Position numbers and translations under genes: made by a program
Notes under the pieces: generated by a model
Told to the model about the DNA's origin: nothing
The model's input: the letters and a program-made list of their open reading frames with translations, nothing else
Databases searched by the model: none
Assembly (NCBI RefSeq): GCF_022539665.2
Contig: NC_081332.1
Span: 3,844,001 to 3,908,000 of the forward strand
Source: Daphnia carinata
Taxonomy: Eukaryota
DNA: 64,000 nucleotides
Direction of reading: 5' to 3'
Shown: positions 7,199 to 15,821 of the stretch, piece by piece
How the letters are laid out: each line of letters starts with the position of its first letter
Numbering within the stretch: the stretch's first letter is position 1

Positions 7199-10100
7199 TT
7201 AAAAACTATCCTGCTTGCGTACATACTCAGGAGTTGCGCGCCAATTTCCATTTACTCCCCGCTGACCAGCGTATCCAGGTGCATTCGGTTTAGAATATGT
7301 CGATTCGTTCCTACGCGATGAGTTATTTTGACTTATAGGAGAAGGACGGTAGCAAGCAGCACGGTTCTCGAAGCGGCCAAATTTCACCTCACTGTCGGAT
7401 CCTTCGTCTGATGGACGTTTGTAATTCTATTTAAAAATTTTGAAAATTTACTATTAATAACAAGTTGATATTTACAAATGTGAATTTTTTAGAAATAACA
7501 ATTTTACCTGACTGGCTGGCGAGCTAGGATATTCGGCGGCATGGAATTCACACAATCGGGAGATCATGTTAACAAGTGGACTCTGCATAAAATCGGGAAC
7601 GGATTCGGGATCAGCAGATATTCTGGCAATGACTTCATCAAGAGCAGGTTTCAAAACCAACATATTCGCTACGGTTTGTGGATTTATCTGAAGATTAATC
7701 CACCCATCAAGGCGTACTAAACACATTCCTGATTCTGGAATGATCTGAACCCGTTTAGCGCCAAACAGAATCAAATGAAGTGGTGTGACTAACGTCACGT
7801 TCTTGCAAACGACTGTTCCAGCACGTATTTTTTCGCTGAAAACAAAAAATGGCAACGGAAATTCAATTTCATCTGATGAGCCGATGCAGTTGACGGAAGA
7901 CTTATGGATCAGCGAAGGTCCTAAGCGCGCCTCGGCCATTTGTACTTTTCGTTTTTCTCTGTGGACGCATATGTTGGGGTAATGCCCGATTCCGATAAGG
8001 CCTATCACCGTATCTAATTCAGGATCATTGCCGTTCACCCTATAAGCCTTTAAAACAAAATGTTTCGTGAGTGGTTGTAAATGAACACTGCCAGAAATAT
8101 AAGAATACCTTTGGAGTAAGACATGATTTAGGGAAGCCGAAACCGAGTAAAATGTCACGAAGTTGGCAGCGAGCATCGTGCAAGGCGCGGAGTGTTGAGT
8201 AGGACAGGCCTTTGGCTTCACAAAAGGCATGCAGTGAGCGAGGACCAGATTCGATCCGTACTTGATCGTAGGCGTAGAATGCAGCGAGCATGGCTACATG
8301 ATCAGAACAACGGTTACCGGTAAACGATCGCTGAGTATTGTTGAGTCGTTTGTTAAGACCGAGGTAGAAAACATCAGCACTGACGGACTCACTAGCAGCA
8401 AGAACACACATTGCATCTCCGTGGCCGAAAAGGGCTCCAACGATAATCATTTTGGCGAGAGATGGTTCTACAGGAATTCGAGCCACTAACCTACCAAGGG
8501 CAGTTAATTCCTCTTGTGCGTTCAGGCACTTCATCTCTCTAAAAAAAAAGAAGAGCCCTTAATTACTTTTCCATTTTGAAATTTGATATATCATACCTGA
8601 GCATAACTTCAGCTTCTATAATTGCATCTATCGGAGGTGGCTCTAAAGCTTTACTTAAGAAATGAGCGATTGAGCCGAGACGAAGAAGTTTAATGGCTAG
8701 TGCGGTTTCATGAAGCGGTGAGCGGAGGATTTCAGCCTTTAAACTTTTTTCCAAAAGTTGAAAACGACTATAGCTGCATAATCGAAAAGCATATCCTGGA
8801 CGGACTCGGCCGGCTCGACCACGTCTCTGCTCCAGATTGTCTTGAGCTGCCCAGACAGTTGCATAATTGTGCATATTGTTGTGCGAAGTAAAATGTTTGA
8901 CATTGGCGCGACAAGAATCGATGACGAAGACTACATCATCGATGGTGATGGAAGATTCAGCAATGTTGGTGGCCAATATGACTTTCATTCTCCGCTCGGG
9001 GGCAGGTTGAAAGACACGTCGTTGATCTTCTCGCGGCAACATCGAGTGCAATGGCAGTAGGAGATAATCACTAGCATATCGGCTTTGTTGCAAATGACGT
9101 AACAATGCGAAAATGGTACTCCACCCAGGAAGGAATATAAGAACAGCCCCAGGAATTTTCATTTGCCTTATGTGAATAAGTAATTCTTCAACCAATTCGA
9201 GACAAATTTCTTTCTCATTCAATAGAGCCATAGTTTTTTTAGTTTCGGGTGAATATTTTCCAATCACCTAAAAGATAGCTTATTAGTTTCATCTAAAATA
9301 AAGGGCACAACAGATTTCACCTTCAAATTCATATTTTCCTCTTCTTCCTCTTCTTTACGCTGGTAGTTCTTTTTAACCTCCTGTCTTGGCCGAAAGCGAA
9401 GCATTTCGACGCAGTCCTCCAAGTAATACAGTTGAACAGGGTGAACTCTACCGGGAATGTCGACTACTGGGCACCTGCCAAAGTAGCGGCTAAAGAGCGA
9501 TGTATCAATTGTGGCTGACATTAAAATGACGCGAAGTTCTGGATGCCGGTTCACCAAATCCCGCAGCATTATCAATAAGAAGTCGGTGTTGGTATCACGC
9601 TCGTGTACCTCATCAACGATAACCTAATAAGTTTTATTGGTTCACAGATTAAGTCCGATCTCTCTAATTGACTTTTAAATAGTCATATAAATTACGTGCG
9701 ATACACCATGAAGGCCACGTTCTAATCTCCGGAGAAGTACCCCAACCGTGCAGAAAAGAATTGCACCATAAGGACGGGGTAACGTACTTTCAAACCGAAC
9801 GCTGAAACCAACAGATTCGCCCACCTCCTCACGTCGTTCTGATGCGACACGTTCAGCCACGGATATTGCCGAGATTCTACGAGGTTGTGTCACAATCACA
9901 GAACACTGTGCACCCTCCTTCCATCGTAAATAGTCGTCTAGAATATATTGACAGACCTGTAAAAAGAAGACAGGAAAAGGTTAGAGTCCATTGGAGCTAA
10001 TGTTTTCCATGGGGGCTTACCTGTGTAGATTTGCCGGAACCGGTGTTGCCACGGATTACGACGACCGAATGGTTATACAGGGCATCCATAACAGCGTTTT

Positions 10101-12005
10101 TGAAGGCGTAGATTGGTAAAGATTTACGCTCTTCTAATGCCTTCTGAAGACTGACATCGGATTGTATGCGACGCTCTTGCCTTTGCCATAAGTCTTTGCT
10201 TATCGTATCCATTGACGTCTAAAAATAAAATGTTTAATTTGGTTCAATAAAACTTATTAACTCTTTAAATACCGTAGCAAAATATCCGCGTTCAATAGTA
10301 CTAGCGGTCCAGGTGTTCCAGTTGGCAGAGGGAGGAGACCATGGAATGTCAATTGAGCTACAACGTGAATCGCCTTCATCCCCGAGGCGCATCGCTTTCG
10401 GTGCAAGTCGCTCATCCAACAGAGTTTGTGGTTCTATTGGATTTCTCCTCTAAAAATAAATTCAAAAGGAAAAATGAACACCGTTCCGTCCGATAGCTGC
10501 TCGCATTTAGAGGGACTATAACTAAAGTGGAGCACAAAACAAACTAAAGCTGCTTCATTAAATGTCAAAACATTCGCAAATGCTGTTTTTACATTTGAAA
10601 GTATAAAGGCTTCGTATGGTACGAACACTAATTGTCCTTATCAAGTGGGAGCTCAATACTCAAGGATCGTCTGGTGAGAGTATTGATGCTGAAACCATAT
10701 TAAATCACCGTACCCGGCATTACGTCCGTGGTACAATTTTTGGAAGGCCCTCCTTACTTTACAGGAGGGCAAGCAAATATTTCATTCTAAAATTTAAAAG
10801 TTAGCAGCTATTTACAATAATTTAAATAAAGAAATACGTACCACAATGTTGGGTAACAAACGATGTTCCATTATTGTTCTATTTAATTCTTTTTCCAATT
10901 CGTCGCGAAGAATTACGGGAAAAGGTTTCGTTTCCACTTGCACTTTTTTGCTACTCACAGTAGTTCCAGCCGGGCCGATGAATTTCATTTCATATAACTG
11001 TCTTACAATCGACAGGGCACACGATTTGGAGGCGAGAGCCTTTGTCCACCCTTTTTCTCGTGCGTATATCTCTAGAGCATAAAATCATTCTTTTTAAGTA
11101 TGTAACGGAATACGGGACAAAATTATTGATTATCTTACCTCTACCACGAAAAATAAAACTCATTTCGGCAAAGAAGTTCCTGTGAAAAAATTCAATCATG
11201 TTTTAATAAAAATTCAATCATGTTTTAAGAGTTCTAAATATGATTGTCTAGGTTAAAATTAATGTGTCGAAATCTATCCTACTATCAAACTGAATGACAA
11301 AAATGGGGGTTAAATACACAAATTTACTTTTGATGATCCGGGCCGTATGATTCGTAAACATAATCTGCTTTAATTCTATTTTCCATCAGAAACGGGTGCA
11401 GTTTAGCCTTGGCATTTTCAACCGAGTATCCTCCAACGCTGGATGGAGCAGGTTCTCTGCATAATTGCGAATATTCATCCGTTTGATGGACGAATCTTCC
11501 AGTAGTGGCAGTGTCATTACCTATTTTTAGAAAATTGGAGAAATCTGTCAGCATAGTTCTATGGCATGTTTTACCTGAACTACAATGTAGACCCATTTGT
11601 CTCACTATGCTTGCGGCATTTCTATTGGGAATCTCTTCTGCTTTCATGGCTCCCTTGTAAACCAAATGAGCAACAAAGCTGTTGGCTGCATTGGCTTGTG
11701 CATTCCTTTTTGAAGTTGATCTTCCAGTTGCAACATAATGAAATCCTAAAAAACCGACAATAAACAGTGATGTTTGAACAAAATCAATACAGTTGGAACA
11801 CTCACCATTTACACGTAATTCACAGTAATAGCCATTTTGATCTCCTAAAGCACCAAACAGGATCATAGAATAAACTGAACTTCACAGTTAGAAAAAAAAC
11901 GTAAGATTTCTTGATACCTAGGGACTTGACATCATAAACTGGCGGAATTCTGTAATTTTTCATCAAAAAGGCATACAAGAACTCTTTGATATCTCGCTCT
12001 CCCAT
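7199..12005 (-). CDS. DHX9: DHX9/maleless-like DExH-box RNA helicase (two dsRBDs, helicase core, HA2/OB region), multi-exon
   Basis: N-terminus [13 protein letters not shown]...[11 protein letters not shown] (dsRBD1) and ENAKAKL...GPDHQKNFFAEM...[11 protein letters not shown] (dsRBD2). Core motifs [38 protein letters not shown] and QRRGRAGR. The last exon starts at 7426 and the stop is at 7199. Confidence 0.93.
10570..10590 (+). promoter_or_regulatory. PSEA-like snRNA promoter element
   Basis: ACATTCGCAAATGCTGTTTTT resembles the insect PSEA core (TAATTCCCAACTG, recalled; 9 of 13 identical). It lies at about -61 to -41 from the inferred snRNA start, the canonical PSEA position. Confidence 0.55.
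10631..10770 (+). ncRNA. U4atac: U4atac minor-spliceosomal snRNA, antisense within the 392-nt helicase intron 10450-10841
   Basis: The 5' TCCTTATCAAGTGGGAG is near-complementary to the conserved U6atac CTCCCCTTGACAAGGA segment (stem II). The 5' stem-loop TCAATACTC/GAGTATTGA (10653-10686) carries a kink-turn CTC-AAG-GA...GA-GAG. TGCTGAAACC fits stem I. A hairpin at 10710-10734 precedes the Sm site AATTTTTGG (10735-10743) and a terminal 8-bp hairpin GCCCTCCT/AGGAGGGC (10747-10770). The layout follows Drosophila U4atac as recalled. Confidence 0.85.
11186..11228. repeat. Intronic 21-nt tandem duplication (AAAAATTCAATCATGTTTTAA x2)
   Basis: Exact copies at 11186-11206 and 11208-11228, next to the helicase acceptor at 11180. 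Confidence 0.85.
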
Positions 12006-13929
12006 TTCGACGCCCTTACGAAATGGGAAAGCTGTTCTATAAACCGTAGGTCACTTTATGTCGTTTGGTTATCCTAAGATTTGATGTTATTATAAGTAAT
12101 AACAAGAAATATGTGCAGAATTCTTTTCTGTGGAAAATGTTTAACTGTCAGGACTGAAATGCTTTGAGCTGTTTCCTACATTCGTCTGCAAAGGAGTAAA
12201 TCAATGGTAGGACTAAACAGACGGCATCAAGGATGGAAAATAAATTACTCTCAAAAGTTTGAATAGATCGAAATATTACTGCCTAGGAGAGAGCATGACT
12301 AGACTTTGTCGTGTTAGGGACTTCAACTAACCTCAATAGAACAATGAGATAACCATAGAGAGGAGTCATTCACTGGGTTTCGTTAAAAATTACGTTATGC
12401 TTGATTGCGCAGTCTGTCATAACCTCATGATGTTTCCCTGTAAGGTACTAACAAAGTGGTAAGCTCCCACGTCTATTCTACTACTCTTTTACACCAGGTG
12501 GTCAGATATTATGGGTTCAACACGCGATACAAGATAAACGATGTTAAAGGCTGAGATTCAAACGGCACTTCTTAGCAAATCAAAATCTTCCATGACTATG
12601 TTCGTGACTATGTCCGTACTATGTTTTTAATAGCAAACGTTGGTAGCGAGGAAATACAGCATAGTCGGGGAGAAGATCGATAATCGTGAACCGGTTTACT
12701 TTGGGAATGAGTTGTGCAACTTGCTTGGCAATTTTTTGCATATCTTTAACACCTATTGAGGGCTTCTCATTTCTATGCATATTAACTGGAAGTCCTGCTA
12801 AACTTGAAGCTAATTACTATTGGTTCCCCATTTCTTTAATTACCTTGAGAATTTTTAGAAGCAAAGCTACTAGAAGTAGACCTGGTAGATAGATTTCCAT
12901 TGTACAATTGAGACAAATTTCATCTTAGATGATGTTCAGGTTCTATGATGTGAATTGAAGTATAAGAAATGTTATAAGGTAGTAAAGAAAGCACTGTAGG
13001 GACAAATGAAATTTGTTTACTTGTGCAATATAATTTTTCAGAATGGCCTGCTGGAAAAGACCTATCATTGGTTCAGTGTTCCCATTTCTTGTCAATGTTA
13101 CACTTGTTGTGGAGACGAATGTTTAAATTTGATATGAAACATTTGTGGCATTGTGTTGACCTGTAAATTTTCCAAAATAATAGTTGAACCTGTGACAGAT
13201 TCCTTGATTTCAAAACAGAGCTACAATATAACCTGAAACAACAGCTATGTTGCTGGTTTTATTACCAAATGGTTATGAATTTCCTTACTAATCAAACTTG
13301 TTAGGGCTAAAACGGTTAATGAGGACTTGAGGCAAAGAAACCAAAACGTGCTTCTTTATGAGTAGACGACTGTCCACGTTTAGTTGTAGAAAATCTGATA
13401 ATTCGCTACACGAAAATGGAACAACATACTTTTTGCTGCTTGCATTTTGAGAGACACATCGGATTCATAATTGCGAACTATGAATACCAATCTACGGTTG
13501 TATTGTGGCTAATGAAAAGAACGATGAAAAAGGACGAGTGTGCTCGTATTTGAAAACAAAGAAGAAACAAAAACCGCAGGAAAACGCAAACAGCGAGAGT
13601 GCCTAACTTCTTTAAATTGAGCACTATAAGAAACAAAACGCACAAGGGGTAAAAATTTCTTTATGCGAAAAAAATCACATTTTACATTATTTTTTTGGCA
13701 TTTCTAGACAATTTTTGTAAAACAAAGAAATTAAAAAGTTCTACTTGTGATTTTCAGATACTGTTTAGCATTAGAGTCCTGCATGACACTGCGGACTTTG
13801 CCGAGAAGGAAAAGCGACAAGGTTTTCCTACTCAATAAAATTTTTAAAATTTTATTGTCACTCGTTAGTAATTGAAGCAGCAAAGAAGCAATAAATTAAT
13901 ATTGCGTCATTGAGTAAATAAGCAAAAGA

Positions 13930-15821
<1,892 letters not shown>

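Follow-up and report, generated by a model that had tools for sequence, protein, structure and literature searches.

The window, i.e. the whole 64-kb stretch of Daphnia carinata DNA that was analysed, carries on its minus strand a gene for the helicase DHX9/maleless and, on the opposite strand within the sixth intron of this gene, a gene for the U4atac snRNA of the minor spliceosome. The locus is composed of the following features:

7199-12005, minus strand: coding gene of DHX9/maleless (RNA helicase A), 14 exons, ATG at 12005, stop at 7199
10450-10841, minus strand: intron 6 of the DHX9 gene, 392 nt, GT-AG, major-type ends, phase 0
10570-10590, plus strand: PSEA-like box spanning -61 to -41; its positions 3-10 hold the fly core ATTC-CAA
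10599-10607, plus strand: -30 element at the place of PSEB, with TATAA at 10602-10606; positions 30-37 read AAGTATAA
10631-10770, plus strand: U4atac snRNA gene of about 140 nt, delimited by the Rfam match and the conserved block 10630-10770
10633-10651, plus strand: stem II arm, which pairs with U6atac in 13 bp and 5 bp separated by the bulged U10646 (co-folds)
10653-10686, plus strand: 5' stem-loop with K-turn and a 5-nt loop (Rfam alignment, co-folds)
K-turn of this stem-loop: bulge A10662 A10663 G10664; sheared pairs G10665.A10677 and A10666.G10676; U10667.U10675; C10668-G10674
10687-10693, plus strand: stem I arm pairing with U6atac (co-folds)
10710-10734, plus strand: 3' stem-loop ahead of the Sm site, -11.1 kcal/mol
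10735-10743, plus strand: Sm site AATTTTTGG (Rfam alignment and sequence)
10747-10770, plus strand: terminal hairpin 3' of the Sm site, -16.2 kcal/mol, beyond the Rfam model, with an insect-type loop

A preliminary description of this DNA had placed an antisense U4atac gene in a 392-nt DHX9/mle intron, a reading on which the Rfam match, the gene model and a spliced contig agree. In the comparison with the Rfam covariance models of U4atac and U4, the U4atac family RF00618 matched positions 10631-10747 of the plus strand over the full model (positions 1-132) with 63 bits, i.e. above the gathering threshold of 53 bits, and with an E value of 2.8e-08 for the whole window. U4atac was the best match of its clan at the locus, one overlapping match of the same clan with a lower score being dropped by the Rfam search, and no other Rfam family reached its gathering threshold in the 64 kb; further U4atac copies were not detected in the window. 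A match to SmY (RF01844) was rejected, as it reached 28 bits against a gathering threshold of 39 and spanned the Sm site and the terminal hairpin alone; matches to SL1, snoR120, JA02 and SpR18 from a permissive Rfam search were likewise discarded, all of them being under gathering. The K-turn stem-loop, the Sm site and the terminal hairpin that had been claimed beforehand were each located by Rfam alignment and folding, and the fold of the whole U4atac RNA yielded a z value of -2.56, with 3 of 200 shuffled sequences folding equally well. The remark that U4atac is often missed by annotation is untrue of this copy, which exceeds the curated Rfam threshold with default filters and is presumably marked already, via Rfam, in RefSeq-type annotation. 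The D. pulex orthologue was found in a screen of 2008 and has been in print since then (Davila Lopez et al., PMC2396436); yet, according to the portion of the literature available, blast missed the U4atac of Trichoplax.

The spliced 14-exon model of the host gene maintains an open reading frame of 1189 amino acids, and 1189 of 1189 residues match a Daphnia carinata record designated 'dosage compensation regulator-like' in the protein comparison. The D. magna counterpart shows 94.4% identity to the deduced protein, and the DHX9 proteins of beetle, prawn and abalone show 48-51%, the top matches being DHX9/mle. The protein comprises the parts of DHX9/mle, namely two N-terminal dsRBDs, a DEVH helicase core, HA2 and an OB fold, and a domain search of the 94%-identical D. 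magna protein returned two dsRBD stretches along with DEAD, Helicase_C, HA2 and OB domains. The C-terminal glycine/RGG-rich tail is missing from the window DHX9 in an alignment with Tribolium DHX9; this tail is a secondary feature, and its loss leaves the DHX9/mle assignment unchanged. The dsRBD model score of D. magna DHX9 amounts to 41 bits, compared with 99 bits for the beetle and 68 bits for the prawn protein (window regions 7199-7426 and 11575-12005). Divergent from the helicase gene lies, on the plus strand at about 13930-15820, what we take to be a 26S proteasome AAA-ATPase gene of the Rpt2/PSMC1-like type, and short minus-strand reading frames are present between the two genes at 12600-13260.

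The introns of the DHX9 gene measure, in order, 73, 60, 54, 148, 67, 392, 54, 64, 72, 53, 58, 61 and 81 nt. The earlier statement that the introns other than intron 6 are mostly 55-70 nt long is therefore roughly right, 11 of these 12 having 53-81 nt and one having 148 nt. Intron 4, with its 148 nt, owes some of its additional length to a perfect 22-nt tandem duplication (11186-11228). In run X1, contig 1, which is 99+% alike, omits exactly 392 nt at a 10449/10842 junction; the run is labelled 'DNA?', and its contig behaves like a transcript. Accordingly, intron 6 is genuine and spliced, and it contains the whole of the U4atac gene on the opposite strand. The gene and its promoter form a unit of 202 nt, with 120 nt to the acceptor and 71 nt to the donor of intron 6, and the length of this intron is explained by the unit inside it. 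A crude screen for U12-type introns yielded ten [AG]TATCCT[TC] sites, none of them with a branch motif within 400 nt.

A search for U6atac was carried out with a pattern that was derived from the 5' end of U4atac and allowed an optional base at the bulge, and this resulted in 78 metagenome matches (L001-L078). Sixty-three of these are of the U6atac type, each with an upstream AAGGAGAG box that is absent from the search pattern; among the 20 of the 78 loci that were tested with the Rfam U6atac model, all 15 with a AAGGAGAG box passed and none of the five others did. The 63 loci contain 14 distinct U6atac cores, all of which co-fold with U4atac into the Y shape. The energies of the stem II duplexes lie between -23.6 and -30.3 kcal/mol, and 0-5 of 500 shuffles are equally good; the stem II pairing is partly given by construction, the loci having been chosen by complementarity. 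The pairing core of locus L053 is that of the published D. pulex U6atac; in its co-fold with U4atac, stem II consists of 13 and 5 bp and stem I of 7 bp, and the pair has an energy of -88.5 kcal/mol, compared with -44.6 and -28.0 kcal/mol for the two RNAs apart. Co-folding with U6atac, which had been proposed as a check, thus produced the expected Y shape, also with the congeneric core of L053, the partners being metagenome loci. The U6atac segment with an extra A (CCCACTTGA) that had been predicted as the partner did not stand, as it occurred in 0 of the 63 loci though the pattern allowed it and D. pulex U6atac is also without it. The corresponding site has no insert in 62 loci and an extra C in one, and U10646 is a bulge in stem II. 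Many of the 63 animal U6atac genes have TATA-like boxes on their 5' side; the locus L053, which is near to D. pulex U6atac, has AGTATAAA about 30 nt 5'.

The conservation of the locus was analysed in relatives, with 8 of 24 runs compared, all of them as assembled contigs. U4atac and DHX9 exons share one contig in X14 (organism E), X4 (organism C), X3 (organism B) and X6 (organism D), and a check of synteny accordingly places U4atac next to the same DHX9 exons in four other organisms. The stretch 10237-11084 aligns with X14 as one piece with 102 other letters and 18 gaps, and the whole stretch aligns in one piece with X6; the spacing between exon 7 and U4atac is 196 letters in X4 versus 197 in the window, and that between the exon pieces and U4atac is 339 letters in X3 versus 333. 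Run X2 comes from the same sample as X3, X5 has U4atac and the exons on separate contigs, and X7 is without cover over U4atac; X5 and X7 were left out of the linkage count. A second, non-syntenic U4atac locus, as suggested by X2, was rejected, X3 having the same block on a 14.5-kb contig with DHX9 exons. In X3, the U4atac block 10630-10770 differs at 0 of 141 sites, whereas 60 of 318 sites are changed in two DHX9 exon pieces, which are thus only about 81% alike; at this exon rate, the absence of differences from the block has a p value of about 2e-13. The intron flanks around U4atac are unalignable in X3, the block stands out in X2, X3 and X4, and the terminal hairpin is identical in X2/X3. 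These data clearly indicate that selection acts on the U4atac RNA from end to end, and the limits of the conserved block correspond to an RNA of about 140 nt. One U4atac-bearing record each was detected in X2, X3, X6 and X14, with a record filter that could hide others, and U4atac is probably a single-copy gene. In the metagenomes, five matches were obtained in U4atac orientation, none of which was U4atac-like, and the three that were tested had no Rfam match; a tblastn comparison with DHX9 gave no match at any locus of the metagenome scan.

The PSEA-like box that had been claimed at -61 was recovered with the core of the fly element: ATTC.CAA begins at 10572, and PSEA position 1 is thus located at 10570, 61 nt 5' of position 10631. 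According to the accessible text of the study on fly promoters, the ATTC-CAA core is kept in 23 of 23 fly PSEAs (PMC1761439). The comparison of PSEA and PSEB employed the fly consensus, which may not be that of Daphnia. Across 128,000 strand positions the core turned up 17 times, and at this locus alone is it followed by TATAA 22-24 nt behind. A TATAA in the same register (to within 1 nt) recurs in X2, in X4 contig 6 and in X4 contigs 7/8, each time in a loose-end flank, and part of it can be seen in X5; the letters between TATAA and U4atac are unalignable among those relatives; X2 and X4 contig 6 count as one lineage because their flanks are alike. The PSEA core is missing 5' of all 55 U6atac loci inspected for it, the D. 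pulex-like L053 included, and no clear 3' box was recognised on reading the downstream sequence at 9-19 nt past the RNA end. A T5 run, as in the Sm site, is expected to stop Pol III. Since the hairpin beyond this run is nevertheless conserved, the U4atac gene would be transcribed by Pol II, and the promoter geometry, as far as the sequence goes, fits the fly Pol II layout. In fly numbering, PSEB occupies positions 30-37, the Pol II snRNA genes being non-TATA and a TATA box marking Pol III genes in the part of the source available (PMC1761439); the -30 element of the window differs from the PSEB of fly Pol II snRNA genes in being TATA-like.

Taken together, we regard it as highly probable that this snRNA gene, which lies in reverse orientation within intron 6 of DHX9/mle, is expressed from a promoter of its own and is the source of U4atac for the minor spliceosome. 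Pol II would transcribe U4atac from its own -61/-30 promoter to give an RNA of roughly 140 nt, which would take an Sm ring, bind 15.5K/Snu13 and Prp31 by its K-turn and hold U6atac inactive until the minor spliceosome is activated, as outlined for the U4atac pathway in the available portions of PMC4114687 and PMC7337319. An alternative is a functional U4atac with an added link to the host gene, in which convergent transcription, or duplexes of U4atac with the helicase pre-mRNA or lariat that the helicase itself unwinds, would tune the levels of DHX9 or U4atac. The geometry allows such a coupling, the helicase pre-mRNA containing a full antisense copy of U4atac, and the helicase has two dsRBDs and the position of U4atac is kept in four other organisms; a perfect duplex would moreover be far more stable than either fold, which is true of any antisense pair. 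We nevertheless consider this coupling very improbable: both strands are tightly self-folded (-44.6 and -45.8 kcal/mol), conservation is limited to the snRNA and the -30 box while the rest of the intron is not conserved, and humans have the same layout with an unrelated host. Nesting is also common, comprising 47 of 120 snRNA genes (39%) in C. elegans, and single-copy minor snRNA loci stay put in Drosophila (4/4, and 3/4 with one undetermined), as given in the accessible part of PMC3342880; U4atac is not mentioned among the DHX9/maleless literature matches listed. Nothing that was found suggests a regulation of the host gene by U4atac, and the gene probably entered this intron long ago and stayed there because it is essential and present once, without any particular tie to the helicase.

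Human numbering was mapped onto the window via the Rfam alignment, and the offset was verified on 13 published variant positions and the human sequence. The window letters 30A, 51A and 53U are letters of human patients that are Watson-Crick compensated here, the compensated stem changes relative to human being 30A-53U, 32U-51A and 28A-55U. The protruding base of the K-turn, 10664, is an unpaired G (36G) and thereby carries the letter of the human allele n.36T>G, and the third K-turn pair is U.U (10667 = U39). The available text of PMC13087456 reports n.36T>G as homozygous in one child among 12 with likely pathogenic/pathogenic genotypes, and 17G>A/36T>C in another child of those 12; an allele-specific assay was not found in it. 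Changes at position 3 of the K-turn, at which U is preferred, harm 15.5K binding (PMC1874613, in part). These reports, along with the presence of both types in run X4, would agree with a window copy that is weakened or silent on account of G36, the work being done by a U36-type copy elsewhere. This explanation is very improbable in view of the 141-nt identity with a distant relative in which the G36 copy is the only U4atac record detected, and of promoter-like boxes, Sm site and stems that are intact. Additionally, G36 occurs naturally in 5 of the 38 U4atacs aligned in PMC2396436, as far as that alignment was accessible, i.e. in the distant lineages of lamprey (Petromyzon), two Ciona, Aplysia and Lottia. 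Because of these five members, G36 is, on the sequences aligned, a recurrent natural variant and neither a sign of decay nor specific to Daphnia, and its uniqueness to Daphnia was rejected as an explanation. A compensation of G36 by the U.U third pair was weakened by the same alignment: the lamprey U4atac combines G36 with U at the third pair, like the window, but the other four of the five G36 members, Ciona (2), Aplysia and Lottia, have A or G there.

The G36/U39 type is letter-for-letter the same in the window and in the distant organism B (X2/X3), and X4 contig 6 and X5 contig 6 represent this type with one difference. The closer relative E (X14) has T at 10664, A at 10667 and C at 10686, which are common to X4 contig 5 and D. 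pulex among the differences listed. Run X4, which carries a one-organism label, contains at least three U4atac haplotypes at unlike depths, which may reflect a mixed sample, a hybrid or paralogues; X5, for its part, is a metagenome. The distribution of the G and U types does not follow the divergence of the host exons, a pattern that may originate from paralogue conversion, old polymorphism or repeated reversion. That closer X14 has the U type while distant X2/X3 are identical to the window could also be read as an assembly chimera, the G-type middle of the gene having been assembled from reads of another species, and the DNA runs of the same species do not span intron 6. Such a chimera is extremely improbable, as the flanks are continuous with the close relatives X14 and X6 and the swap of a single syntenic snRNA would require a contaminant at a depth near that of the host. 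A more specific proposal, namely that two old U4atac types swap at the same DHX9 intron by gene conversion or trans-species polymorphism and that G36 is the sole working U4atac of its carriers, is conceivable though rather doubtful; if true, animals with G36 would provide a natural and tractable model of how the human patient allele is compensated.

The analysis of this locus is mostly of annotation value, as it defines where the Daphnia U4atac gene begins and ends, its promoter and its host. A variant of DHX9 intron 6, or an edit made there, can damage an essential snRNA, which is the same trap as that of RNU4ATAC in CLASP1. Moreover, it seems that a genetically tractable crustacean operates its minor spliceosome with the K-turn letter of a human patient, and the case of G36 bears on the judgement of snRNA variants by conservation; the term compensated pathogenic deviation was absent among the literature matches listed for snRNA, U4atac or the K-turn. 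The U4atac types, finally, do not track the divergence of the host gene.

No paper on the placement of the Daphnia U4atac gene in DHX9 was found among the matches listed, which cover mostly non-subscription literature, and the supplement of PMC2396436 may give the locus. In that publication, the D. pulex U4atac agrees with the window in 57 of the 63 letters of 10634-10696; the stem I arm and the bulged U in stem II are among those shared. It differs from the window in having U at the protruding K-turn base and A at the third pair, where the window has G and U, and at the further positions 10652, 10653, 10671 and 10686. The terminal hairpin, with a nearly identical loop, is present in five of seven insect U4atac entries (Apis, Bombyx, Tribolium and two Drosophila), whereas the two mosquito entries stop before it (PMC2396436). 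The bipartite promoter of fly snRNA genes would likewise have its counterpart here, the ATTC-CAA core being found at -61 in the window as well. Human RNU4ATAC is located antisense within intron 2 of CLASP1, according to the available portions of PMC12703291 and PMC13484765, and thus also occupies the opposite strand of a protein-gene intron; it shares the Y-shaped duplex, the K-turn and the Sm site, but its host is unrelated and its RNA ends just past the Sm site, where the Daphnia RNA has the further hairpin. With an orthologue known from D. pulex, an antisense precedent in human and minor snRNA loci that stay put in flies, the arrangement of the U4atac gene in D. carinata is an ordinary one.
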